This document shows positions 5,272 through 42,689 of a stretch of 42,689 bases of DNA, piece by piece (position 1 is the stretch's first letter; each line of letters starts with the position of its first letter). Source of the stretch: a virus (taxonomy: Duplodnaviria > Heunggongvirae > Uroviricota > Caudoviricetes). The stretch lies in the IMG/VR virus record IMGVR_UViG_2923318301_000002, one strand, 5' to 3'. The notes below the pieces were generated by a model. It ran no database searches. It was not told the DNA's origin and saw only the letters and a program-made list of their open reading frames with translations. Position numbers and translations under genes: made by a program.

Positions 5272-8200
5272 TCAGCTAATCGTGATGCCTGCAGTGGCTT
5301 TCTTCATCACCACAACCAGCAAATCGCTGATACTGGCTGTGGGATACCAGTTATTTACCAGCCATGCTGACACCGAAAACTCCAGTGTCATGTGACCGTG
5401 ACCGGCAGGCATATCAATAACACCACTGTAAATCAGCGTATTATCCAGCGCGGTACGGTTATAAATTTCAGCACCGTTTTTCCGTACTATCAGGCGGCAT
5501 GACGAATAAATATCGTTATTCTCCCGCTCATGTTTAGCGCCGCTGAATGCCACCGCCGGAATAACAATCTGCCGGTCAAACGGCTGATCGTCATAAACCC
5601 TGACGGTGATGGTCCCTGATGGCCACCGTTCCGGTGCACGGGAGTCCCGGGGGAAAGCTTTGCCCACTGTTTTAACGAGATCGCCTTCAATCTGGTTGGC
5701 GGACAGTTTTCCCAGAACCCGACAGTTCTCGTTAATCGTGACGTTGTTGAGCGTCCCGGCGTTCGCATTCACGTTACCGCTGATATCGGCATTTTTCGCC
5801 GTCAGCCGCCCGTCCGGTGTCAGGGAAAATACCGGAGGATTACCGCCGCTGGTAATGGTGGGAGCCGTCAGGCGTTTCAGGAACACTTCGTTCATGAATA
5901 TCTGATCGCCCTGCCCAACAAACATCGGCTTTGTGTTGCCATTCGCAGGATTAATCATCGCAATCCTGTCTGCCGCCAGCAGCACCTGACTCTGCATGCC
6001 GTCAGGGGTGTTCTCAATACCGGCACCAATACCCGCGATATAAAGGCGTCCGTCCTGCATCTGCTGCAGCTTCACAGCCCACATGCTGTTCAGGTTATTA
6101 TTTGTATCAACCTGAACCTTCTGTATCTGCTGAATTGCCGCACTCTGGTCTTCCAGTTTCTTATTGACGGTCTGCGTGATTTCATTGCTGACATCCGTAA
6201 TGGACGTCCTGATTTCAGCCAGGTCAGGCGCAAGCTGACCGTTATCAATCTGCGTCCACAGCTCCTGAGCCAGATGGGTTTTCCCTATCTCGCCTTTGAA
6301 AAAATCCAGATAACCGGATGCATCATCACTCGGCTGACCAACAGCCTCCACGAATGCCGATTTGCCAACGGTGTTCACACTGCGGATATAAAAGTAATAA
6401 TCATGGCCCGGTTTGATATTGATACTGGCGGCTATCCAGTACAGCGCCGTGCCAAGATAGCGTGCTGTGGTTTCAACCTGCCTGATATCGGTAATCCGCT
6501 TTTCCGAGAACCAGAACTCAAACTGTACCGTCGGATCATAAACCGCAAGATGCGGCGTGGCGGTTATCTGAAAATAGCCCGGCGTCAGCTCAATCCGCGA
6601 CGGCGCTGCCGGTGCGGCAATCCGGAACGATACCGACGCCGGATCGCCCTGCTGCCCCCACGCATTTACTGCCCGGACTGTCAGCCTGTAGTTCCCCAGC
6701 GCCAGTTGTGTGAAGCGGTAAGTGGTTTCCGTCGTCCGGGCCGTGCTGACCAGCCACTCACTGCCGTCATCCGCTGTTACGGTCAGACGGAGCAGGAAGC
6801 TCACGCCCTTCACCACCTTCGGCGTGTCCCAGCGCGCCAGCACCTGATATTCCCCGCTGTCTGCGGTGACTTCGGCAGTCAGGTGCTGCACCGCTGGCGG
6901 CGTGACACCATTCACCGTGCCGCTCTGGTCGCCGTCAAAGTGCGCCCCGTTATCCACGATGGCTTCTTTTTCCGGTACATGCTGCACGGCGGTGATGGCA
7001 TACGTGCCGTCATCGTTCTCACGGATACTCACACAGCGGAACAGGCGCTGGCGCAGCGTCGGCAACTTCAGCCCCCACACGCTGTATTCTGCAACACCAT
7101 CAGGAACCCGGCTCACTTTCACCTTCACGCCGTCGGTGACGGACTGGACCTCCACGCTGACCGGATTACCCTGACCGTCAACCAGGCTTATCAGCGTGGT
7201 ACCGGAGGATGGCAGCGTGATTTCACGGTCGAGCGTCAGCGTCCGGGTCTGGCTGTTCACCGCCAGCACGCGCCCGCCGGTGCTGATACCCGCATAGTCA
7301 TCATCGCAGATTTCAATGACATCCCCCGGTACATGGCGAAGCCCTTCCGCACCCACGCTGAAGTCCACGGTCTGCGTTTCCAGCAGTTCCGTTTTAATCA
7401 GCCACAGCCCGGCGCGGTGCGCCTGCCCCCGGCTGGTACAGCCAAAGGCATCCATCTTCGTGACGTTACGACCGTAACGGGCAATGGCCTGCGTATCTTC
7501 AACAAGCTCTGTCGCCGTCTCCCAGCCGTTGTCCGGGTCAATCCAGTTCACCTCAACGGCATTATGGCGGTCTTTCAGGGCGCTGAAGCTGTAGCGGAAC
7601 GGCGCGCCATCATCCGGCATCACCACATTACTGCGGTTATAGGTCCACGCCTTATCCGACGGCCGGTCCTGCACGAACGTCAGCGTCTGCCCGTTCCATA
7701 CCGGCATACAGCGCATCGCCGAGCAGAAATCACTGAGCACATCCCACGCCTTACGCTGTGTGGTCAGGTAAGCGTTACAGGTGATGCGCGGCTCCGTGCC
7801 GCCAAAACCGTCCGGCACCGACTGATCGCAATGCTGGCCGATGACATACAGCGCCCATTTGTCCACATCCGCCGCACCAAGACGTTTCCCCATGCCGTAG
7901 CGCGGATGGGTCAGCATATCCCACAGACACCAGGCCATGTTGTTGCTGTATGCTGGCTTAAACGTTCCGTCCCAGATACCGCTGTATTGCCGCGTCTGCG
8001 GGTTATAGTTCGACGGCACCTGCAGAATGCGCCCGCGCAGATGATAATTACGGCTCACCTGCTGGCTGCCGAACTGCTCCGAATCCACCTGCACGCCGAC
8101 CAGTGCCGTGTTCGGGTAGCACTGTTTCACATCGATGATTTCGGTGTATGACGACCAGAGCGTTTTGTTCTGCAGCTGGTCTGTGGTGCTGTCCGGCGTC

Positions 8201-26330: not shown

Positions 26331-27396
26331 TGAATTGTCAAACCAAGTGCAACGATTTTTTGAAGTAAACTTCATAAGGTGTTTTCCAACCTAAACATTT
26401 ACGTGGTCGTAAATTCAGTTTATTGATCACCTGTTGAATATCAACTTCGCTCCACTGATTGATGTCTTGGTGCTTCGGAAAGTATTCACGAAGTAACCCA
26501 TTTGTATTTTCATTCGTTCCCCGTGTCCACGGTTGATGCGGCTCGGGGAAGTAAAATTCTACACCCAGTGCTTCTGTTACCAAACGATGTTGGGCAAATT
26601 CTTTACCACGGTCTGGCGTAATTGACCGCAATATATGTGAATCCAGCAATTCAATCATGGCTTTTTGGACTGCTTCGGCTTTTTTGGCAGGAATTTTCTT
26701 CACCAACTCAAAACGACTTTTGCGTTCCGTCAGCGTCAGCAAACAAGCTCCACCCGCTTTACCCAGTACGGTATCGGCTTCCCAATGTCCAAAGCGACTG
26801 CGATTTTGCGCCGAAATGGGACGGTCGTTCAAATGGTTGGATATCTGAATTTTGCCACGTTTTTCATGATGATTTTTTGTATGCCGTGTTTTGCCTTTGT
26901 GGCGCAGTTTGCGACTGGCTTTGCGTTCGCCTATATCAAACAACCCTGAATAAATACCACGATAAATGGTTGAATAACTAATGGATAATTCAGATTTTTC
27001 CAATTTTAATCGTGCGCTGATTTGTTCGGGCGACCAGTTTTCTGTCAGAAACTTTTCTTGCACCAAATTGAAATATTCAGGCTGCTCTAATTTGCGCTGT
27101 GCTTTGCTATTTTGACGATGCTTCAAATAGCTGTTTTGTGCGTTCGTTGCACTGTAGCTTTCTAGAGCGTGTCGTTTCAGCTCGCGAGAAATGGTGCTGG
27201 AGCTACGTCCCAGTGCTTTGGCAATTTCTGCTTGTTTTTTGCCCTGTGCGAGTAAAATCATTATCTTTTCTCGCTCGTTTATTGTAAGATGTCGGTAGGA
27301 AGTACTCATCATTTGGAAATGGTTTTTGTGTGGAAACAAAATTATATTCTAGTTGATGAGTACTTCTTTTTTTGTTGCACTTGGATTGTAAATTCA
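26331..27396 (-). mobile_element. IS30-family insertion sequence (~1.07 kb)
   Basis: Single transposase ORF flanked by imperfect terminal inverted repeats (left …tgaattgtcaaaccaagtgcaac, right gttgcacttggattgtaaattca); ends uncertain by ±1-2 bp. Confidence 0.7.
26338..27312 (-). CDS. IS30-family transposase
   Basis: N-terminal HTH (…LTINEREKIMILLAQGKKQAEIAKALGRSSSTISRELKR…) and DDE region (…HWEADTV…RGTNENTNGLLR…); start at ATGATG 27312. Confidence 0.85.
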   Translation of the reverse strand: MMSTSYRHLTINEREKIMILLAQGKKQAEIAKALGRSSSTISRELKRHALESYSATNAQNSYLKHRQNSKAQRKLEQPEYFNLVQEKFLTENWSPEQISARLKLEKSELSISYSTIYRGIYSGLFDIGERKASRKLRHKGKTRHTKNHHEKRGKIQISNHLNDRPISAQNRSRFGHWEADTVLGKAGGACLLTLTERKSRFELVKKIPAKKAEAVQKAMIELLDSHILRSITPDRGKEFAQHRLVTEALGVEFYFPEPHQPWTRGTNENTNGLLREYFPKHQDINQWSEVDIQQVINKLNLRPRKCLGWKTPYEVYFKKSLHLV

Positions 27397-27631
27397 GCTC
27401 TTTAAAATACCAGACATGTAACACAGAAAAAACACAAAACCATACCTTAAATAGAAACCTGATCATCAAGCAGATATGCATGGATAAACTACAAGACGAG
27501 ATATAAACCACCCTGCATTTAAATAAACAATAAACAACATCAGAAAAATAATTCTGCTCTATGGTTTATATTCAAAAATATCATTTATACTTTTCAGAAC
27601 ATCACCAGCAAGGCATAAACAAGGAAGCTAA

Positions 27632-27967: not shown

Positions 27968-28002
27968 GGAGTTTACTCACATCTGACAAAATCAATATAA
28001 AC

Positions 28003-28193
28003 AGCCCCTCCGGAGAGGGGCTGGAGAGTGGCGCTATGTGCCATTGCATGGTGCCGGGTGCCTCCCGGTGAATTCAGTACCAGCACCTGAATCCGCGATT
28101 ATCCCATATACCTACTCGCTGATTACCCCTCCGCACAGGGGGATTCACCATGCGAAATTTTTTAACAAACTTCCCGCCGGCCAGACAATAATC
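28003..28193 (-). repeat. Structured element copy A (candidate ncRNA; paralogue of copy B)
   Basis: Shares with copy B a terminal hairpin AGCCCCTCCGGAGAGGGGCT and conserved blocks (GCATGGTGCC.GG.GCCTCCCGGT.AATTCAG; GGGGGATTCACCATGCGA; TTTTTAACAAA…GCCAGACAAT.ATC); stem partners are conserved while loops differ. Confidence 0.5.
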
Positions 28194-28465
28194 GCCAGCC
28201 TGAATTATGAGCAACGTGGCATTTTACGGGAAAACTGTTTTCTGCAGTAAAAAGGCCCGCCGGAGCGAGCCTGGAAGGATAGCGGTCATGTGATGCCGGT
28301 TTCCCGGTAACTCAGCATCGGTATCTGAGTCAACGTTTTCTCTACTGGGTCATTTCCGATACGTTCCGCCTTCCGGCAGACTTTCATCACGTCAGAAAAT
28401 ATAGCACCCTGAGTAACAGGACAGTACTCAGAATTCAGGAAACTGTGACACATCCTGCACAGAAA

Positions 28466-28663
28466 AGCCCCTCCGGAGAGGGGCTGAAGTATAGCCTAAT
28501 TTCTGTCTGTCGCATGGTGCCAGGGGCCTCCCGGTAAATTCAGCCTGTCTACTGAATTTGCATGTTCTCTGGATCATACACTTTGCCAGATGCCCCGCCG
28601 CTGAGGGGGATTCACCATGCGATGTAATTTTTAACAAATTCTCCGGCAGCCAGACAATCATCA
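28466..28663 (-). repeat. Structured element copy B (candidate ncRNA; paralogue of copy A)
   Basis: As copy A; on the minus strand the terminal hairpin is followed by TTTTCTGTG. Confidence 0.5.
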
Positions 28664-29000: not shown

Positions 29001-29076
29001 TGGTGGCCCTTGCTGGATTTGAACCAGCGACCTGGCGATTATGAGTCGCTCGCTCTCACCACTGAGCTAAAGGGCC
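29001..29076 (-). tRNA. tRNA with CAU anticodon (Met or Ile2/lysidine type; ileZ-like of lambdoid phages)
   Basis: 76-nt cloverleaf folded by hand: acceptor GGCCCTT/AAGGGCC, D arm GCTC…GAGC, anticodon loop CTCATAA, T arm GCTGG-TTCAAAT-CCAGC, 3' CCA encoded. Confidence 0.9.
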
Positions 29077-31478: not shown

Positions 31479-31757
31479 TTACCTCCAGATCCGTTGCTGG
31501 TATGTGCGGGATGAACGCGGTGGGCGTTCGGAGTAAGGGAGTCTGACTGAGATTATCCAGTGACGGTAGTCGAGGCTAAGAGCTTTCTTAACCTCGTATC
31601 CGCGCCTGCGGTAACACTGAATTATCCATTCCGCCTGCTCTTCAGTGCATGGAGGATGCTGGAACCAGTCTGATTTGAATGCGTGAAAACGCCGTCCGCA
31701 CCTACTGGCAAAGACGGCAGAATCATTAGAATTGTGTAATTTGGTATCGTGCGCCAT
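31479..31757 (-). CDS. Hypothetical protein (92 aa)
   Basis: ORF from ATG 31757 downstream of the hok terminator; stop 1 nt before the next start; weak RBS. Confidence 0.4.
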   Translation of the reverse strand: MAHDTKLHNSNDSAVFASRCGRRFHAFKSDWFQHPPCTEEQAEWIIQCYRRRGYEVKKALSLDYRHWIISVRLPYSERPPRSSRTYQQRIWR

Positions 31758-31924: not shown

Positions 31925-32080
31925 TTACTCCTCAGGTTCGTAAGCTGTGAAGACAGCGACCTCCGTCTGGCCGGTTCGGATTCGTACCTCGCAGAGGTCT
32001 TTCCTCGTTACCAGTGCCGTCACAATGACGGTTAAACAGATGACGATCAGGGCGATTAACATCGCCTTTTGCTGCTTCAT
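31925..32080 (-). CDS. hokD: Hok/Gef family type I toxin (HokD/RelF-like)
   Basis: 51-aa ORF MKQQKAMLIALIVICLTVIVTALVTRKDLCEVRIRTGQTEVAVFTAYEPEE matches remembered HokD; an in-frame upstream extension and a structured leader are present. Confidence 0.85.
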   Translation of the reverse strand: MKQQKAMLIALIVICLTVIVTALVTRKDLCEVRIRTGQTEVAVFTAYEPEE

Positions 32081-32339
32081 AGCCTGCTTCTCCTTGCCTT
32101 TCGGCACGTAAGAGGCTAACCTAGATTTGCCGTTCATAGATTGAGCCTCAGATTAATGTTAAGCGTCTTGCAGGACGCGTAATGTTAACTGGGGCTTTTC
32201 TCTATCTGCCTTTTGGTGTTCATGCCTGAGACAGATAGCCTCAAGCACCCGCAGTCATTCTACTTAACTAAGATTTCCCCGCAAACCGTTTTTGTCCGGC
32301 ACAGTAAATATCCAACTAAACCAATGGCGTTCGCTGTAT

Positions 32340-35466: not shown

Positions 35467-35892
35467 TCAATGTACTGCCACAGCATTTCCTGCCGGGCCA
35501 CCACGGTTCATCTGATTGAAACCGGCGATTGCCACTGCGACAAAATCATCAGCGTCTCTCACCAGTCGCTCCCGCGTCTCCACCAACTCCCGAAAATAAG
35601 CTGAACTGTGGCTGCGCATTCTGGCCACCAGCAAAGGTGGCATTGCCTTTTCGATCGCTGGTAACAACGCCTGAATTTTTTCAACTGCATCAGGGGTGTC
35701 TTTCTCCACCCAGCGGAAAATTTTCTGGGTATTGCGAGCCAGGGCTTCCGGATGGCTGTCGTCATACAGTTCCGGGAACGTCATTCCCAGCTCGAAATAC
35801 GCTTTGGTAATTTTCGCAGCCGGTACTTTTTCGCCGTCCGGATGCGCCCAGGCATTCATCGCCATGCGGATGTGTTCATGCTTGATTTTCAT
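35467..35892 (-). CDS. cII-position protein, possibly YdaT family
   Basis: 141-aa ORF from ATG 35892 (MKIKHEHI…) with AAGGGGGG RBS, immediately after the Cro-like gene; family assignment from memory and synteny. Confidence 0.45.
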   Translation of the reverse strand: MKIKHEHIRMAMNAWAHPDGEKVPAAKITKAYFELGMTFPELYDDSHPEALARNTQKIFRWVEKDTPDAVEKIQALLPAIEKAMPPLLVARMRSHSSAYFRELVETRERLVRDADDFVAVAIAGFNQMNRGGPAGNAVAVH

Positions 35893-36118
35893 GAATCCCC
35901 CCTTGGTTAGAAGGCGGATTATGATCAGAACCGGGAATGACAACCGTCGGTATGTGTAACTCATATTTGAGCGCCCCGGCAGTGACTGCCTGAATTAGCA
36001 ACGCCCATTTCCACGGAACCTCTTCCCCCCACATGCTGACTGTGGTTTTTGACGTTCCTAGAGCTGCGGCTGTTTTAACAACTCCGCCAAAATAGCCTAA
36101 TACTTCTGATTTTTTCAT
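35876..36118 (-). CDS. Cro/YdaS-like HTH regulator
   Basis: 80-aa ORF with HTH (…GGVVKTAAALGTSKTTVSMW…), divergent from the CI-like repressor. Confidence 0.7.
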   Translation of the reverse strand: MKKSEVLGYFGGVVKTAAALGTSKTTVSMWGEEVPWKWALLIQAVTAGALKYELHIPTVVIPGSDHNPPSNQGGIHENQA

Positions 36119-36209
36119 GAGTCGCTCCATAAAACTGAACGTCAAAAGTTTAATAATCAAAACCAAAGAAAGTCAAGAAACAAAACCATCTGTGTTTTAA
36201 AATCAAAAC
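36119..36209. promoter_or_regulatory. Divergent immunity control region (OR-like operators, PR/PRM)
   Basis: 91-bp AT-rich intergenic region between divergent cro-like and cI-like genes; contains TGTTTTAAAATCAAAACAT, whose half-site ATGTTTTGAT recurs downstream of cI. Confidence 0.5.
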
Positions 36210-36848
36210 ATGAGCAAGCAAACTATATCTGAACGCATAACCCAACGTATGCATGCGCTAAACCTGAAAGGCAAAGACCTTGTCAATGGCACTGGCGCAT
36301 CAAAAGGCTCCGTAAGTCAATGGATGAACGGTGGAGGAGCGCCGTCCTCGCGTTACATAAGTTCACTGGCAAAAATATTGAAAGTAAACGAAAATTGGCT
36401 TCTTAATGGAGGAGAGTTAAATACAGGTGATTCGCTTGATCTATCTTTACCGCCGATAAAAACGGTTCCGCTACTATCACTTCAGCAGGCAGCAAGCTGG
36501 AGTGATTATATGAAAAATTCCTCAATAACCTCTTGTGTGCAGCTTGTCGGAGAAATCCCGGTCAATACCTTTGCAGTTGTTCTAGAGAGTGACAGTATGT
36601 CAACATCTGGTGGGGGAGTTTCCATCCCAAATGGTTCAACAGTTTTTGTTGATCCCGATCGAACCGTACAACCAGGAAATATTGTCCTTGCCTTACCCAA
36701 AGGGACCACAACACCTGTCATTCGTAAACTGGAGATAGAAGGGCCGGATATTCTTTTAGTCCCCACGAATCCTCGCTACCCTTCAATTATGCTGGATGAT
36801 CTATCTTGCATATTGGGCGTATGCTTTAAAATTCAACAAGATATTTAA
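36210..36848 (+). CDS. CI-like repressor (N-terminal HTH, C-terminal S24 LexA-like peptidase domain)
   Basis: HTH (…LKGKDLVNGTGASKGSVSQWMNG…) and S24 motifs (…ESDSM…, …VIRKL…); no Shine-Dalgarno upstream of the ATG. Confidence 0.85.
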   Translation: MSKQTISERITQRMHALNLKGKDLVNGTGASKGSVSQWMNGGGAPSSRYISSLAKILKVNENWLLNGGELNTGDSLDLSLPPIKTVPLLSLQQAASWSDYMKNSSITSCVQLVGEIPVNTFAVVLESDSMSTSGGGVSIPNGSTVFVDPDRTVQPGNIVLALPKGTTTPVIRKLEIEGPDILLVPTNPRYPSIMLDDLSCILGVCFKIQQDI

Positions 36849-36913
36849 CCAACCTCATCTATTTGATTAACTGTATGCCATCGTGGTGATGGCTTAACAG
36901 CTGCCTGCTTAAA

Positions 36914-36961
36914 ATGTTTTGATAAAAAAACATTGACCTGAAAAGTTCGTTTTTCTAAACT
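36914..36961 (+). promoter_or_regulatory. OL/pL-like operator and promoter for the leftward operon
   Basis: Palindrome-like ATGTTTTGATAAAAAAACAT overlapping −35 TTGACC, 17-nt spacer, −10 TAAACT. Confidence 0.4.
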
Positions 36962-37279
36962 TCATTCATTCCCTCACCCCATCCTACAGAATGCAGGGCA
37001 ATACTTCGAGTTACCAGGCAGTGGTCAGGGGTTAAGTAGCCAGCCCGAGGCGTAAGAACATGACGGCAGGGTTCAACTTTAATAACTATGCAGCAGGTTT
37101 TTGTTCCGCTACCCCGGCGTTAAGGGGAAACAGAGGATTTCTCAGTGGGCGAAGTCAAACATCAGAATGGAAGGCGTCCAGGGATCAGCAAAGAAACAGC
37201 GATGGCGCTTTATATTGATATCAGCGCCATTGCCGGACAGGTAAGAATTATCAGAGCGGTAACTAAGCGGTATGCGCCT

Positions 37280-37480
37280 TTACTTCAGAAAGTCTCTGGT
37301 GAGTGCACCGAAGATATTGTCAACGATTTCGTCATCAAACTGCGAGGACTCATCTTCAGTTACAAGGTGACCACAATTTTTGCAGATGGCTCCCGCGAAA
37401 CTGTCAGAGCCCTGCGGTTTAAAGGATGTGTCAAAGACTTCGCCACCACATTCTGGGCAAGAAAACTTGATTGTATTCAT
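37280..37480 (-). CDS. Small zinc-ribbon protein (66 aa), hypothetical
   Basis: CPECGG…(18 aa)…CKNCGH motif; GAGAGGAA upstream of ATG 37480; conflicts with an overlapping plus-strand ORF (37145-37501), so uncertain. Confidence 0.35.
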   Translation of the reverse strand: MNTIKFSCPECGGEVFDTSFKPQGSDSFAGAICKNCGHLVTEDESSQFDDEIVDNIFGALTRDFLK

Positions 37481-37572
37481 AACCAATTTCCTCTCGAGTA
37501 ACAGACCCCTCAGAGGATACCACCTCGCCTGACGTGGTTAAAAGCAGGCAACGCTAACCACAAGGAGCCGAC

Positions 37573-37791
37573 ATGCAGAAACGAGAACCCGTCATCATCG
37601 CGCCAGACTATACCGATGATGAACTTTATGAGTGGATGCGCCAGAAAATTAATGCAGCGCAGGATTTGAAATGGGCCAATGAAGCCAGGGCTAAGCAGGC
37701 TGAAAATCTGTCCGCTCTGGAGCAGGATATCACCAGGCTGGAAAAAGCAGCGGCATTAAGCATTGCCAGAATGATTACATACCCGCGTTAA
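37573..37791 (+). CDS. YdfC-like hypothetical protein (72 aa) in the dicB operon
   Basis: AAGGAG RBS 6 nt upstream; lies upstream of DicF/dicB as ydfC does in Qin. Confidence 0.55.
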   Translation: MQKREPVIIAPDYTDDELYEWMRQKINAAQDLKWANEARAKQAENLSALEQDITRLEKAAALSIARMITYPR

Positions 37792-38132
37792 TAGATAACC
37801 AACGAAGCTAAGGTTGGTAATTAAGGAGTTCTCCACGGGTGAGGTGGAGTGCGTGCGCCGGACACGGGTGAGCATCCGGCACTGACAGTTTACTGAAAGG
37901 ATATTTCCCTGAAAAGTCAGACCATAACGCGAAAGCGCACGGCGAGGTAGCTGGTTCATAGATAGCCTGTCGTTAAATTTTCGTCGACCGTGCGCTTCCG
38001 GTTGTGGCAATCCGCGAAATGGCGCGGCGGTAAGTATGGCGGGGTTATTCCTTCCCCCGTTGAGGACACCGGGTTGTCAGGTTGACCATACGCTTAAGTG
38101 ACAACCCCACTGCAACGCCCTCTGTTATCAAT

Positions 38133-38190
38133 TTTCTGGTGACGTTTGGCGGTATCAGTTTTACTCCGTGACTGCTCTGCCGCCCTTTTT
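38133..38190 (+). ncRNA. dicF: DicF-like Hfq-dependent sRNA (cell-division inhibitor RNA)
   Basis: tttctggtgacgtttggcggtatcagttttactccgtgactgctctgccgcccttttt matches remembered DicF, including the terminator hairpin and U-tail; immediately upstream of dicB. Confidence 0.7.
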
Positions 38191-38359
38191 AAAGTGAATT
38201 TTGTGATGCGGTGAATGCGGCTAAGCGCACGCGGAACAGTTAAAACCAAAAACAGTGTTATGGGTGGATTCTCTGTATCCGGCGTTAATTGTTAACTGGT
38301 TAACGTCACCTGGAGGCACCAGGCACCGCATCACAAAACTCATTGTTGAGGGCGCGATA

Positions 38360-38548
38360 ATGAAAACGTTATTACCAAACGTTAATACGTCTGAAGGTTG
38401 TTTTGAAATTGGTGTCACTATCAGTAATCCTGTATTTACTGAAGATGCCATTAACAAAAGAAAACACGAACGGGAGTTATTAAATAAAGTATGCATTGTT
38501 TCAATGCTGGCCCGTTTACGTCTGATGCCAAAAGGATGTGCACAATGA
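38360..38548 (+). CDS. dicB: Cell division inhibitor DicB
   Basis: 62-aa ORF MKTLLPNVNTSEGCFEIGVTISNPVFTEDAINKRK… near-identical to remembered Qin DicB; ATGA-coupled to ydfD. Confidence 0.85.
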   Translation: MKTLLPNVNTSEGCFEIGVTISNPVFTEDAINKRKHERELLNKVCIVSMLARLRLMPKGCAQ

Positions 38549-38736
38549 ATCCAGTATTTGCACTTATTCTGACGGTTTTTCTTGTTTCCGGAGAGCCAGT
38601 TGATATTGCAGTCAGTGTTCACAGAACAATGCAGGAATGTATGGCAGCAGCAACCGAACAGAAAATTCCAGGCAACTGTTATCCGGTCGATAAAGTTATT
38701 CACCAGGATAATAACGAAATCCCGGCAGGATTTTAA
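38545..38736 (+). CDS. ydfD: YdfD-like small secreted/lysis-associated protein
   Basis: 63-aa ORF with N-terminal hydrophobic segment MNPVFALILTVFLVSG…, matching remembered YdfD downstream of dicB. Confidence 0.8.
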   Translation: MNPVFALILTVFLVSGEPVDIAVSVHRTMQECMAAATEQKIPGNCYPVDKVIHQDNNEIPAGF

Positions 38737-38829
38737 AACAGCACCGTAATAAATATCCAGTTTCATTCTTATATGTCAGCAATGGCAGAGATTTGTTCAC
38801 CCTTAAATCTGTGATGAGGTTTACCAATA

Positions 38830-41271
38830 ATGAGCACTGATAAAGAAGAATTTGCACTATATTGCGAAGCAAAAAATGACAAAGTAAGAAAACGCCTAGG
38901 AATTAAAGGTGGTTTTTACTGGACTACAGCAAAAAAATTATCTGTTGCAATCTCCCGCTGCATTACCGCAATGGATGACAACGATTATGATGAAGACGAC
39001 TTTAAAAAACCCGTCCGCGTCAATTTGCCCGTTGTTGACGACCTTCCGCCAGAAGGCGTGTTTGATACTGAATTCTGCAACCGCTATGAAAAAGGCGGGA
39101 AAGATGGCATCACAATGACATTTATCGGCCCTTCCCCCTCTGTTCAGGACAAACCAGCCAGCACTGACAATACCAACATCAACGGCGAAGCCATGACTGA
39201 GATTGAGGAGAGCATGCTTCTGCCTGTCTCCGGTCAGGAACTGCCCATTCGTTGGCTTGCTCAACACGGCAGCGAAAAACCAGTAACGCACGTTTCACGC
39301 GACGAACTCCAGGCATTACACATTGCACGGGCTGAAGAACTACCGGCTGTTACTGCCCTGGCTATTTCGCATAAAACCAGTCTGCTCGACTCGCTGGAGA
39401 TTCGCGACCTCCACAAACTGGTTCGTGACACTGACAAAGTTTTCCCTAATCCTGGTAATTCAGACCTGGGACTAATAACTGCTTTTTTCGAAGCATACCT
39501 AGACGCTGACTACACTGATCGGGGTCTGCTGACAAAAGAGTGGATGAAAGGAAATCGTGTTTCACGCATCACCCGCACGGCTTCCGGTGCTAATGCTGGC
39601 GGTGGGAACAAAACCGATCGCAATCCGAATTTAGTACACACCCTCGACACACTGGATGTGGAGATTGCAGCAGCCACACTTCCGATGGATTTTAATATTT
39701 ATGAAATTCCGGGCAGCGTTTATCGTCGCGCAAAAGAAGTAGTCCTGAACAAAGAAAGTCCGTTCAAAGAATGGTCCGCAGCACTTCGTGCAACCCCGGG
39801 TATTCTGGACTATTCCCGCGCCGCTATTTTTGCACTTATCCGAAGCGCACACCCTGAATTTTATCACTACCCGGGACGCCTTCAGGGGTATATCAACGCC
39901 TATTTGACGGAAACTGATCACGAGAACCCCAGCAAGGAAACTCTCACAGCTGCCCGGCATACGCCGGAAAAAGATATCCTGGAAGAAATTAACCGCGAGG
40001 TGGTTACTGAGCGTGAAACAGAAGAAGAAAAACCACAACCATCTGACGCAATGGCAGGTGAACAGGCAACAACTGAAACAATGGAACCGGATACAACTGA
40101 ACATGGCCAGAACGCGCAGTCGCTGGATGCTCAGTCGCAGGTGAGTTCCGCTAACCAAGTAAAAGTCACCGCTGACGAAGTAAACAAAATTATGCAGGCA
40201 GCCAATATCAGCCAGCCTGACGCCGATAAGTTACTTGCTGTATCGCGTGGTGAATTTGTTGAGGGGATTAGCGACCCTAATGATCCGAAATGGGTCAAAG
40301 GGATCCAGACTCGCGATTCTGTGAACCAGAACCAGCATGAATCGGAACGGAACGACCAAAAAGCGGAACAAAACAGCCCAAATGCGTTACAAAACGAGCC
40401 AGAAACGAAACAATCCGAACCAGTGGCGCAACAGGAAGTGGAAAAAGTCTGCACCGCCTGCGGTCAGACCGGCGGCGGCAACTGCCCTGATTGTGGCGCG
40501 GTGATGGGCGACGCAACATACCAGGAAACATTCGATGAAGAGTATCAGGTTGAAGTTCAGGAAGATGATCCGGAGGAAATGGAAGGCGCTGAACATCCAC
40601 ACAAGGAGAACACTGGCGGCAATCAGCATCACGATAGCGATAATGAAACTGGCGAGACGGCAGATCACTCAATTAAGGTGAACGGTCATCAAGAAATCAC
40701 ATCCACCAGCAGGACGTGTGACCATCTAATGATCGACCTTGAAACCATGGGAAAAAATCCTGATGCCCCGATCATCTCAATAGGTGCAATATTTTTCGAT
40801 CCGCAAACCGGAGATATGGGACCGGAATTTAGTAAGACTATCGATCTGGAAACTGCTGGCGGAGTCATTGATCGGGACACCATTAAATGGTGGCTTAAGC
40901 AATCACGCGAAGCGCAATCTGCCATTATGACCGATGAAATCCCGTTAGATGATGCACTGTTACAATTGCGGGAATTTATCGACGAAAACTCCGGTGAATT
41001 TTTTGTTCAGGTCTGGGGAAATGGAGCCAACTTCGACAACACGATTTTGCGCCGTTCATACGAACGGCAGGGGATCCCCTGCCCGTGGCGTTACTACAAC
41101 GATCGCGATGTACGCACAATCGTTGAGCTGGGGAAAGCCATAGACTTCGATGCCAGAACGGCTATTCCATTCGAAGGTGAGCGCCATAATGCACTTGATG
41201 ACGCCCGTTACCAGGCAAAATACGTTTCAGTTATCTGGCAAAAACTGATCCCGAGTCAGGCTGATTTTTAA
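38830..41271 (+). CDS. Large early protein with C-terminal DEDDh (DnaQ-like) 3'-5' exonuclease domain (often annotated exodeoxyribonuclease VIII in prophages)
   Basis: 813-aa ORF; C-terminus carries Exo I (MIDLETMG), Exo II ([12 protein letters not shown]) and Exo III (HNALDDARY) motifs; central acidic Glu/Gln-rich linker; CTACGQ…CPDCG zinc ribbon. Confidence 0.7.
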
Positions 41272-41332
41272 TGTTCAACCGTCGCCAGTTGTCGTTGATA
41301 TTCTGCAACTGGCGCGTTCCGGAGTGATAGCC

Positions 41333-41602
41333 ATGAGCGAACAGTACCTGATAACGCTCGACGAGTGGAAACCAAAACGGTTCAGTCTCCCAATAACAAA
41401 CACTACCCTGGTGAAATACGGAAAACTAGGATACATCGTTCCAAGGCCACAAAAAATTCGTGGGCGTTGGCTGATAGATCGCCGAGCAGTATTTGTTGGG
41501 CCTGGTGAAACGGGAATTGCGCCGGAAATTCATACTGGCGATGATGATGCACTGAAGGAGATTTTAACTCATGTCACCGAGGCCACGAAAAAACAGCACT
41601 GA
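41333..41602 (+). CDS. xis: Excisionase-like DNA-binding protein
   Basis: Small ORF immediately upstream of and overlapping int; GGAG RBS 8 nt before ATG 41333; assignment largely by synteny. Confidence 0.65.
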   Translation: MSEQYLITLDEWKPKRFSLPITNTTLVKYGKLGYIVPRPQKIRGRWLIDRRAVFVGPGETGIAPEIHTGDDDALKEILTHVTEATKKQH

Positions 41603-42689
41603 CGTAGCCGGTCTTTACGAAAAGTTTGATCGCAGAACTGGCAGAGTTTACTACCAGTATAAAAATCCTGTGACTGGAAAATTTCACGGACTCGGAACAG
41701 ACAAAGGTAAGGCAGAAAAAATCGCTTCCACAGCCAATCAGCGAATAGCTGCAGCAGAAGCTGAATATTTCATGCGCAAAATTGATGAAAGTCTGTCAGC
41801 AACAAAACGTCGGGGTATCAGATTAAAGGCATGGGTTGATCGATATCTGAAAATACAGGACACGCGACTGAAAAATGGAGATATTGCAGCTACAACTCAC
41901 AAAGAAAAAACTCGAATGGCTGCATACCTGGTTTCCCGTCTGGGAAACCACCCATTGAAAGAACTGGAAGTAAGAGACTTTGCATTAATACTGGATGAGT
42001 GGCTGGATAAAGACATGGTCAGCACAGCGAGAGTAAATCGTGGATTATGGGTTGATATTTATAAAGAAGCACAGCATGCAGGGGAAGTTCCTCCTGGATG
42101 GAATCCTCCGGAGGCTACCCGTAAACCGATCCCTAAAGTAACCAGAGCCAGGCTCACCATGGAAGACTGGCAAAAAATTTACAATGCAACGCCTGAAAAA
42201 CACTTTATCCGTAACGCAATGCTTCTTGCGATTGTTACTGGTCAGCGCCGTGATGACATTTGCCACATGCGTTTTTCAGATGTGTGGAACGAACACTTGC
42301 ATATCACCCAGGGAAAAACCGGAATGCGTCTGGCGTTACCGCTTACACTACGCTGTGATGCCATTGGGATAACGTTAAAAGAAGTTATTGATGGGTGCCG
42401 AGACAGAATATTAAGTCCATATCTAATCCATAGTCGGCACCAGAAACAACCGAAGCCGATGAGTAAAGACAACCTGAGCGACTACTTTGCCAAAGCACGG
42501 GATCTGGCTGGGATAATTCCACCAGCAGGAAAAACTCCGCCAACATTTCATGAACAACGCTCTCTATCAGAACGGCTGTACCGTGCACAGGGTATCGATA
42601 CAAAAACATTACTAGGACATAAAGTCCAGGCAACCACCGATCGCTATAACGATACTCGAGGTCAGGAATGGGTTAAGTTGGTTATTTGA
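41571..42689 (+). CDS. int: Tyrosine integrase (lambda Int family)
   Basis: 372-aa ORF with conserved C-terminal catalytic region (…LLGHKVQATTDRYNDTRGQEW…, cf. lambda …GHKSDTMASQYRDDRGREW…); stop codon is the last three bases of the window. Confidence 0.9.
   Translation: MSPRPRKNSTDVAGLYEKFDRRTGRVYYQYKNPVTGKFHGLGTDKGKAEKIASTANQRIAAAEAEYFMRKIDESLSATKRRGIRLKAWVDRYLKIQDTRLKNGDIAATTHKEKTRMAAYLVSRLGNHPLKELEVRDFALILDEWLDKDMVSTARVNRGLWVDIYKEAQHAGEVPPGWNPPEATRKPIPKVTRARLTMEDWQKIYNATPEKHFIRNAMLLAIVTGQRRDDICHMRFSDVWNEHLHITQGKTGMRLALPLTLRCDAIGITLKEVIDGCRDRILSPYLIHSRHQKQPKPMSKDNLSDYFAKARDLAGIIPPAGKTPPTFHEQRSLSERLYRAQGIDTKTLLGHKVQATTDRYNDTRGQEWVKLVI

Follow-up and report, generated by a model that had tools for sequence, protein, structure and literature searches.

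The stretch of phage DNA analysed here (the window, 42,689 nt) carries on its + strand, between positions 37573 and 38736, three small genes and a small RNA that, by their sequence, constitute an intact copy of the E. coli prophage DicF–DicB–YdfD cassette. We aligned positions 37573–38821 with the Qin prophage of NC_000913, from ydfC to the 3′ flank of ydfD, and observed 96.0% identity over 1249 nt with a single gap, the ORFs being collinear and intact. A Qin-type ydfC–DicF–dicB–ydfD segment in the early-left operon, as proposed by the first-pass annotation, is therefore borne out by this alignment. The frames of ydfC, dicB and ydfD are all undisrupted, and a Shine–Dalgarno sequence precedes each of them. 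The agreement of these elements with the known module is far beyond chance; the cassette itself is already known and ordinary, and as products of Qin, DicF, DicB and YdfD are textbook knowledge.

The first gene, ydfC (37573–37791, +; 72 aa), is identical to K-12 YdfC at 71 of 72 residues and matches phrog_1744 with 134 bits. The upstream part of the ydfC–dicB spacer (37792–38132, +) is the DicF precursor region; it is ∼98% identical to Qin and, judged from this alignment, should contain the RNase III/RNase E processing region mapped in K-12. In Qin, these two enzymes process DicF from one polycistronic transcript (PMC10448788). Counting back from the conserved 3′ end, the 190-nt DicF species would begin near 37996. 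DicF itself (38133–38185, +; 53 nt including the intrinsic terminator hairpin) sits between ydfC and dicB, as in Qin, and is an exact match to K-12 DicF in all 53 positions, followed by TTTTT (38186–38190). The Rfam model RF00039 was matched over its full length (model 1–52; 38134–38185, +) with 76.7 bits (E 2.4e-15) against a gathering score of 48, and the terminator hairpin was calculated at −15.9 kcal/mol, so that the recognition of DicF together with its terminator was confirmed. For the Qin copy, Hfq-dependent repression of ftsZ and of metabolic mRNAs is known (PMC5069750).

The division inhibitor gene dicB (38360–38548, +; 62 aa) encodes a protein identical to that of K-12 at 60 of 62 residues, Q36H and I44V being the only substitutions, and was recognized by both Pfam PF05358 (135.4 bits; cut-off 27) and NCBIfam NF049927 (134.3 bits; cut-off 100). 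K-12 DicB exerts a MinC-dependent division block and inhibits ManYZ (PMC6832061). The following gene, ydfD (38545–38736, +; 63 aa), overlaps dicB by an ATGA (38545–38548), as it does in Qin, and its product matches DUF1482 (PF07358, 87.9 bits; cut-off 25). YdfD is 56/63 identical to its K-12 counterpart, and four of the seven substitutions fall within the N-terminal segment reported as IspG-binding. Lengths and overlap of the two genes are those originally read from the DNA, and we found neither divergence in the seed or terminator of DicF nor any frame break in dicB or ydfD. In K-12, YdfD binds IspG and causes division-dependent lysis, which is prevented by co-expression of DicB (PMC8835842). 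The earlier description as a lysis module is thus correct in that YdfD is present and overstated in its label, as DicB blocks this lysis and the prophage has a separate holin/endolysin/Rz cassette of its own. The PADLOC defence-system models gave no meaningful matches to YdfC, DicB, YdfD or the zinc-ribbon protein described below.

Downstream, the same operon continues into an 813-aa exonuclease gene (38830–41271, +), the intact counterpart of the K-12 pseudogene ydfE. Its product combines an N-terminus resembling RecE with an Rv2179c-like 3′–5′ exonuclease C-terminus (Pfam Exonuc_VIII; Rv2179c-like, 227 bits), and the NCBIfam exoVIII match to it is limited to positions 1–602 of 877. The ORF list and the annotation of identical prophages then give xis (41324–41602, +) and int (41571–42689, +), which ends the leftward operon beside potC. 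Exonuclease, xis and int are intact here, whereas they are pseudogenes in Qin. The gene order is therefore cI–pL–…–dicB–ydfD–exonuclease–xis–int–potC, in a largely complete lambdoid prophage integrated beside potC. Identical prophages possess complete head, tail, lysis, Q and replication genes; E. coli 4/2-1, for example, carries this prophage, and a 100% identical copy occurs in an ST410 isolate. Two IS insertions were seen in the prophage: the tail-fibre region contains one, and the other separates Q from the lysis genes. This IS-bearing prophage may be incapable of forming infectious particles. Sequence identity, intact frames and gene order were all read directly, as were the promoter and operator motifs and the RNA structure considered next.

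CI-type repressor and operators upstream of the module

Upstream of the module lies a gene for a CI-type repressor of 212 aa (36210–36848, +), in which Pfam models identified an N-terminal HTH (HTH_3, 20.8 bits) and a C-terminal Peptidase_S24 domain (49.4 bits; cut-off 23). An S24-type CI had been expected here instead of DicA, and this ORF agrees with that expectation: Qin DicA is a protein of 135 aa, and the two are similar only in the HTH, where the N-terminus of the repressor is 35% identical to DicA. Among gene calls, the 212-aa form predominates (P0001, 802 members), and the PGAP annotation covers only its C-terminal 112 aa. Divergent from cI is a cro-like gene (35876–36118, −; 80 aa) of the P22_Cro/DicC type (Pfam P22_Cro, 57.6 bits), which has a weak NCBIfam DicC match and is annotated as Cro/CI family in RefSeq; in BLASTP, its product had no detectable similarity to DicC of Qin.

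In the cro–cI interval (36148–36211), repeat analysis revealed operator repeats resembling OR, namely TGTTTTAAAATCAAAACAT and GTTTAATAATCAAAAC, which are the inverted-repeat partners of the OL site. The latter, a palindrome at 36914–36933, overlaps a pL-like promoter (OL and pL together 36914–36961, +), which the promoter scan placed at 36933–36961 as TTGACC-17-TAAACT. Operator-like palindromes are hence common to the cI/cro intergenic region and to the region overlapping pL. The same scan detected no further promoter-like site on the + strand between 36962 and dicB.

Next, we considered whether this repressor is likely to be cleaved. A HMMER alignment with lambda cI (3bdn) pairs the Ser of ESDSM in the repressor with lambda Ser149 and the Lys of IRKL with lambda Lys192. 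The motif QQAASW aligns to lambda VQAGMF, and Ala-Ala replaces the scissile Ala111-Gly112; the linker of the 212-aa repressor thus holds neither the Ala-Gly nor the Cys-Gly scissile bond of LexA/lambda-CI repressors. Ala-Ala was retained in five of the six homologues examined (84–99% identical), that is, in all five that cover the segment. Therefore, RecA-stimulated cleavage of the repressor cannot be assumed, and the SOS-inducible expression implied by the first-pass annotation is an inference, direct SOS induction being only putative. The conserved Ala-Ala would fit an operon that is not directly SOS-inducible and an S24 repressor that cleaves itself poorly or not at all, and repressors of the DicA and Gifsy types are found upstream of the same operon under antirepressor control (PMC10448788). 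Candidate routes of derepression would then be the antirepressor of another prophage, a Cro-type switch or slow RecA-independent autocleavage. However, selection has preserved the Ser/Lys dyad along with the entire S24 fold, which is hard to explain if cleavage has been lost, and neither a homologue of the Rem antirepressor, whose absence is a further difference from Qin, nor a good LexA box was found in the window, where four weak CTG-N10-CAG matches were seen, none of them near a candidate antirepressor. We regard a repressor outside direct SOS control as unlikely, if well worth keeping in mind. The ORF at 31479–31757, which one phage record labels "toxin to Rem", was tried as a Rem-type antirepressor and rejected, having no similarity to K-12 Rem.

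The pL leader, mosaic insert and search for antitermination signals

A conserved pL leader (36975–37130, +), common to the Tritos/Qin-type phages, is 97.4% identical to Tritos L003:4001–4156 and includes a 28-nt Qin match upstream of ydfA. Its end is a mosaic junction immediately ahead of the point at which ydfA begins in Qin and in Tritos. Here, a mosaic insert of 442 bp (37131–37572) stands in for Qin ydfA–ydfB and carries, on the opposite strand, an ECs_2282-family CxxC zinc-ribbon gene (37280–37480, −; 66 aa; NCBIfam NF047912, 57.3 bits; cut-off 37), an assignment shared by phrog_4852 and the RefSeq annotation. Relative to the pL transcript, this gene lies in antisense orientation. The leader was rejected as a structured RNA, the fold of 36968–37150 being no stabler than that of shuffled sequences (z +1.28).

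The first-pass annotation had noted no N-like antiterminator, and we likewise found neither an N gene nor boxA/boxB downstream of pL. Two + strand ORFs, 37060–37218 and 37145–37501, were rejected as N, with no family matches and no Arg-rich N-terminus. The former arises from fusion of the conserved Qin/Tritos leader to sequence beyond the mosaic junction, and RefSeq calls the opposite-strand zinc-ribbon gene, not these two ORFs. Nothing convincing appeared as a boxA (≤2 mismatches) beside a hairpin between 36849 and 37600, no boxB-like hairpin (5–6 bp stem, 4–7 nt loop) was present from pL to 37600, and the whole window is devoid of an exact boxA. A blastn-short comparison of the pL and pR leaders with the HK022 immunity region for put sites returned only chance matches of 9–13 nt, this being a comparison of sequence that a structure-only relative would escape. 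Partial read-through of the DicF terminator was seen in Qin; apart from read-through of this type, the passage of RNA polymerase through that terminator to xis and int does not appear to be explained by any N/nut or put-like device.

Five-helix spacer RNA between DicF and dicB

The remainder of the spacer contains a five-helix RNA resembling the STnc100 core (38193–38342, +), closed by a stem of 38199–38213 with 38324–38338 and ending 8 nt upstream of the dicB Shine–Dalgarno sequence. Its fold has an MFE of −58.8 kcal/mol (z −4.69). Among nine homologues, 98.6% of the cells were paired, compensatory changes occurred in 8 of 32 pairs, and 0 of 500 shuffles did as well. Positions 38197–38337 matched Rfam STnc100 (RF02076; model 21–154 of 206) with 38.8 bits (E 2e-6), a score below the gathering threshold of 47. 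The dicB spacer shares the covariation-supported core with the STnc100/PasD prophage sRNAs, whereas it lacks the STnc100 5′ segment and 3′ terminator and lies inside an mRNA 5′ UTR rather than forming a stand-alone sRNA gene. It is a probable RNase III substrate. Two full STnc100 copies were also observed elsewhere in the window.

The DicF terminator and the five-helix RNA with its STnc100 core recur as one cassette upstream of three unrelated genes. In Qin-type phages it follows DicF and precedes dicB; Rac-type and Stx phages have it behind KilS and ahead of kilR, and P1-like phages ahead of tciA/terB. Both dicB and kilR are division-inhibitor genes; tciA/terB has only a by-homology note, in which cell-division inhibition is one of several things named. 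In 1994, Faubladier and Bouché reportedly described dicF-like sequences from further prophages. We tentatively suggest, holding it the less probable alternative, that intrinsic terminator and five-helix RNA make up a portable, perhaps undescribed, cis-acting gate that allows the sRNA to be made while the toxic protein is rationed. Such a gate might combine attenuation at the terminator with RNase III processing, or control translation through its structure.

In the closing stem, the substitutions between the window and Qin keep pairing (C-G/G-C here versus U-G/G-U in Qin). This bears on the view that the segment is a silent, decaying and functionless remnant, for which one may point to the defective state of Qin itself and to the IS insertions of this prophage. 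Preserved stem pairing, an exact DicF, intact ORFs each with its Shine–Dalgarno sequence and identical module copies in many unrelated strains already contradict that view at the level of the DNA, and we consider it very improbable.

Relatives and proposed working of the operon

The module region was matched in 4759 of 5426 complete E. coli genomes, and the repressor-to-ydfC arrangement seen here was present in 247 of the 5426. This arrangement is not new: it is common, and both RefSeq genomes and phage records already have it annotated. Order and sequence (96% identity) agree with Qin throughout ydfC, the complete DicF-containing spacer of 568 nt, dicB and ydfD. The isolated temperate phages Tritos, Evi and mEp460 have the same module after their CI, and phages such as Tritos already carry annotations of DicF, dicB and ydfD. 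Identities of 96–97% were found with Tritos (OV696610), Evi, mEp460_ev081 and the HannyBb and PPompW prophages, and Tritos and its relatives share the order CI–pL leader–ydfC–DicF–dicB–ydfD–exonuclease–xis–int. Tritos differs in having ydfA–ydfB and a short CI of 139 aa, in contrast to the S24 CI and zinc-ribbon insert of the window.

The KilS–kilR locus of Rac occupies the same slot of the pL operon, has an sRNA with a GGCGGYATCAGTTTT...CCGCCCTTTTT terminator and the same five-helix spacer RNA, and is followed ∼20–30 nt past this spacer by the start of a small FtsZ-directed division inhibitor; an opposite-strand gene (sieB in Rac) lies upstream in both. However, the sRNA body with the seed is unrelated, as are KilR and DicB, and Rac has no ydfD partner. 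In lambda, expression of kil from the pL operon on induction is established biology. Lambda kil is likewise a small division inhibitor in the pL operon, although it has no sequence similarity to dicB and no associated sRNA, and transcription from lambda pL requires the N/nut system that is missing here. Lambda Kil is reported as a small division inhibitor expressed from pL upon induction (PMC3961180). The position formerly equated with that of lambda N and cIII is thus indeed in the pL operon, whereas the equivalence is rather with the division-inhibitor slot of lambda kil and Rac kilR.

It is highly probable, from the sequence evidence, that a largely complete lambdoid prophage near potC has here a functional-looking dicBF cassette in its early-left operon of the pL type, and that this cassette works as follows, where processing and targets are carried over from the Qin studies and we infer CI control and read-through to int. 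In the lysogen, the 212-aa CI-type repressor would occupy the operators overlapping pL and keep the operon off. Upon inactivation of CI, RNA polymerase would start near 36968, traverse the leader, pass antisense across the zinc-ribbon gene and enter ydfC. RNase III and RNase E would cut the long ydfC–dicB spacer and release DicF, whose 3′ end would be formed by its own leaky intrinsic terminator. Polymerases reading through would transcribe the five-helix spacer RNA, dicB, the translationally coupled ydfD, the exonuclease gene, xis and int. DicF with Hfq would repress ftsZ and metabolic mRNAs; DicB would recruit MinC to the septum and block ManYZ-dependent DNA entry by other phages; YdfD would inhibit IspG. 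The net effect would be to arrest division and take over the host at an early stage of induction, as with Kil in lambda and KilR in Rac.

The wide retention of the module, which is often found in defective prophages and in several copies (PMC5069750), can also be read as a sign that the cassette is kept mainly as a moron-like benefit to the lysogen and not for lytic development. Low, leaky or stress-induced pL transcription would in that case yield DicF and perhaps a little DicB, giving protection from ManYZ-dependent phages and metabolic tuning. DicB gives ∼100-fold protection against lambda-type infection (PMC6832061), DicF of K-12 accumulates in stationary phase despite DicA repression of the operon promoter (PMC10448788), and a DicF terminator placed before dicB would allow sRNA with little toxin in the uninduced cell. 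But isolated temperate phages that form plaques have the module as well, likewise in the early-left position, and its slot is that of kil and kilR, which act during induction. We find a mainly lysogen-directed role conceivable, though rather doubtful, as we do its proposed workings through leaky pL transcription; the two roles are not mutually exclusive.

The Qin prophage is defective and DicA is not known to be cleaved in the SOS response, and because of this the Qin literature is silent on what the cassette does in a real induction. A natural dicBF cassette behind an S24-type repressor, in a lambdoid prophage that is nearly complete, could be used to probe this, and the covariation-supported RNA cassette common to the DicF–dicB, KilS–kilR and tciA loci offers a concrete lead on how phages may gate their toxic early genes.

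Identity of the dic module and its prophage setting

The window is the sequence of a lambdoid prophage, oriented so that the early-left operon runs along the + strand. From identical or near-identical copies (RefSeq genomes and one prophage record), we obtained the gene order: tail, head, terminase, lysis (holin/lysozyme/Rz), Q and replication genes, then a YdaT-type cII analogue, a P22_Cro-type cro (35876-36118, − strand), the repressor, the ydfC–DicF–dicB–ydfD module, the gene for an 813-aa exonuclease, xis and int, with potC adjoining.

We observed that the DicF sRNA (38134-38185, + strand) covers the whole Rfam model RF00039 with 76.7 bits (gathering score 48), and that 38133-38185 is an exact string match to the 53-nt K-12 dicF, directly followed by TTTTT. 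BLASTN aligned 37573-38821, which spans the four elements and the 3′ flank, to the Qin prophage of MG1655 with 96.0% identity over 1249 nt and a single 1-nt gap. The three + strand genes are intact: ydfC (37573-37791; 72 aa, 71/72 identical to K-12), dicB (38360-38548; 62 aa, 60/62) and ydfD (38545-38736; 63 aa, 56/63), the last overlapping dicB at ATGA. The profile scores of DicB (135 bits in Pfam, 134 bits in NCBIfam) and of YdfD (DUF1482, 88 bits) are far over the cut-offs, and PHROGs families exist for all three proteins. The segment is therefore as the first-pass annotation had described it, with neither divergence from DicF in the seed or terminator nor frame disruption in dicB or ydfD.

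Several other features of the prophage were recorded. A sok antitoxin RNA (32075-32250, − strand; Rfam, 112 bits) occurs with hokD, as in Qin, and the nin-region layout (hokD, DUF968, RusA, Q) resembles that of Qin. The 813-aa protein (38830-41271, + strand) has the N-terminal region of RecE (exonuclease VIII), the RecE nuclease domain being replaced by a C-terminal Rv2179c-like 3′-5′ exoribonuclease domain; no recT/bet partner was found downstream, and the K-12 pseudogene ydfE is what truncation has left of it. Compared with prophages that are otherwise 99.9% identical, the window has an insertion of ∼1.07 kb (26335-27398), which separates Q from the lysis genes close to a DUF1737 gene and encodes a 324–333-aa transposase (PHROG transposase, 337 bits); the insertion resembles an element of the IS30 family. 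The left end of the window carries an IS3-family (IS629-like) element (1-741; ALIL frameshift pseudoknot at 282-398) that interrupts the tail-fibre region; the prophage may be tail-fibre defective.

Repressor control, SOS response and antitermination

The CI-type repressor (36210-36848, + strand; 212 aa) has an HTH domain, 35% identical to that of DicA, and a Peptidase_S24 domain (49 bits). Among gene calls, this 212-aa form dominates; PGAP calls only the C-terminal 112 aa, as 'LexA family protein', and misses the HTH domain. The promoter scan identified a sigma-70-like site, TTGACC-17-TAAACT (36933-36961), whose −35 element is overlapped by the palindrome ATGTTTTGAT...AAAACAT, and close copies of this palindrome are present in the cro/cI intergenic region. 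As judged from the sequence, this is a classical OL/OR layout. The same scan found no further + strand promoter-like site from pL to dicB. The operator palindromes, the pL-like site and the lack of another promoter ahead of dicB make the proposed control of the module by the S24 repressor well supported by anatomy. The earlier assignment of an S24 CI repressor and an OL/pL-like promoter is upheld.

The first-pass annotation also implied SOS-inducible expression. In a HMMER alignment with lambda cI, the catalytic Ser (ESDSM) and Lys (IRKL) are kept, whereas the scissile Ala111-Gly112 of lambda aligns to Ala-Ala ('QQAASW'; window 36480-36500). The Ala-Ala pair is not a one-off mutation: of six database homologues compared, with identities as low as 84%, the five that include this segment all keep it. 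In the papers searched, no data were found on whether RecA can still stimulate cleavage with Ala at P1′. The window has neither a Rem-type antirepressor nor a good LexA box. SOS induction of DicF/DicB is therefore plausible, with a specific doubt arising from the Ala-Ala replacement.

Between pL and the module, similarity of the window with Qin and with the isolated temperate phage Tritos (OV696610) covers the pL leader (36975-37130) and returns at precisely the first codon of ydfC (37573); where Qin and Tritos have ydfA-ydfB, the window has a 442-bp mosaic segment (37131-37572). The sole supported gene in this segment encodes a 66-aa CxxC zinc-ribbon protein of the ECs_2282 family (37280-37480, − strand; NCBIfam 57 bits, cut-off 37), in the slot where Rac-type phages have sieB. 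It would be transcribed antisense from pL, and may therefore be expressed in the lysogen. The + strand ORFs of the interval had no family support in Pfam or NCBIfam, and one of them is simply the conserved pL leader read over the mosaic junction.

Consistent with the earlier statement that N is not evident, our search downstream of pL found no N-like ORF, boxA or boxB, and an exact boxA is absent across the whole window. Nothing similar to the HK022 put region was found, the pL leader folded without unusual structure, and nothing was detected to explain transcription passing the DicF terminator to xis and int. In Qin, the DicF terminator is leaky, and transcripts reaching through ydfD have been observed (PMC10448788).

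A structured RNA between DicF and dicB

From the DicF T-tract to the dicB ribosome-binding site, a 150-nt spacer (38193-38342, + strand) is predicted to fold into a very stable multi-helix structure (−58.8 kcal/mol, z −4.69), with a sub-threshold Rfam match to the STnc100 core (38.8 bits, E 2e-6). Across nine sequences, 98.6% of cells were paired in the predicted five-helix structure and 8 of the 32 pairs had compensatory changes, a covariation that 0 of 500 shuffles and no slid-register control came close to. RNase III generates a 72-nt DicF species (PMC5069750); as its end (∼38204) would fall within the 15-bp closing stem of the spacer, this stem is probably the RNase III site.

In Rac, the terminator of the sRNA KilS (PMC8175672) is related to that of DicF and is followed by the same spacer (L007, the Rac K-12 sequence, 7230-7405, − strand) and then kilR. 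Similarity between the Rac and Qin types begins at the terminator and ends just ahead of the start codon, whereas neither the sRNA bodies nor the proteins are related. The same spacer is also found ahead of kil (Stx phages) and of tciA/terB (P1-like phages D6 and P7). Among the matches listed in an IMG/VR scan, at least 105 loci were usable; the ORF that comes first behind the element resembled DicB in 52, KilR in 23 and TciA in 4, and was something else in 19, with no ORF in 7. By these comparisons, the terminator and the structured RNA form a shared cassette upstream of unrelated genes, of which dicB and kilR encode division inhibitors. Part of the Rac/Qin parallel may have been described already by Faubladier & Bouché in 1994.

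Two full-length STnc100 copies (132 and 138 bits) lie in the late operon, following a tRNA gene and Q (coordinates for this area: 27993-28181, 28457-28650 and 29004-29076, all − strand); the hypothetical CDSs annotated over both in phage record ON470619 are probably spurious. Stretches 87–98% identical to the E. coli DicF–dicB spacer also occur in the non-Escherichia records MT713136 (Aeromonas phage AP1, 249906-250152) and PP818812 (Actinobacillus phage vB_Apl-pPE4). In AP1, the position of the stretch, close to the end of the 254-kb record, points to a contaminated assembly or to wrong host labels.

Function and distribution of the module

As the RNA and proteins are near-identical to those of Qin, the Qin mechanism should be applicable. 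There, DicF represses ftsZ, xylR, pykA and manX (PMC5069750, PMC10448788); DicB acts on the Z ring via MinC and blocks ManYZ-dependent phage DNA entry (PMC6832061); and YdfD binds IspG and causes lysis confined to dividing cells, which co-expressed DicB prevents (PMC8835842). Given that DicB blocks YdfD lysis, that translation of ydfD is coupled to that of dicB, and that the prophage carries a lysis cassette of its own, the earlier label of 'lysis module' is an overstatement. By analogy, the module is best seen as an early pL-driven division/host take-over function, comparable to lambda kil and Rac kilR.

In megablast, 36850-38800 matched 4759 of 5426 complete E. coli genomes, 743 of them with ≥80% query coverage and many at 100% identity; the contiguous cI(S24)–pL–zinc ribbon–ydfC arrangement (≥80% coverage) was found in 247 genomes. 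The same S24 cI precedes ydfA-ydfB-ydfC in other strains, and occurs also in O157:H7. Matches were present in 61 phage records, isolated temperate phages among them, and the Tritos record already annotates DicF, dicB and ydfD after CI, so that the 2016 remark that DicB and DicF are lacking from phage databases (PMC5069750) no longer holds. The '813R8'-type records with a 100% match are predicted prophages of carbapenemase-producing clinical isolates, not isolated virions.

The module is thus a known one, of wide occurrence and with existing annotation, and its lambdoid context is typical; follow-up is merited only for the Ala-Ala repressor and for the terminator/structured-RNA cassette upstream of unrelated genes.
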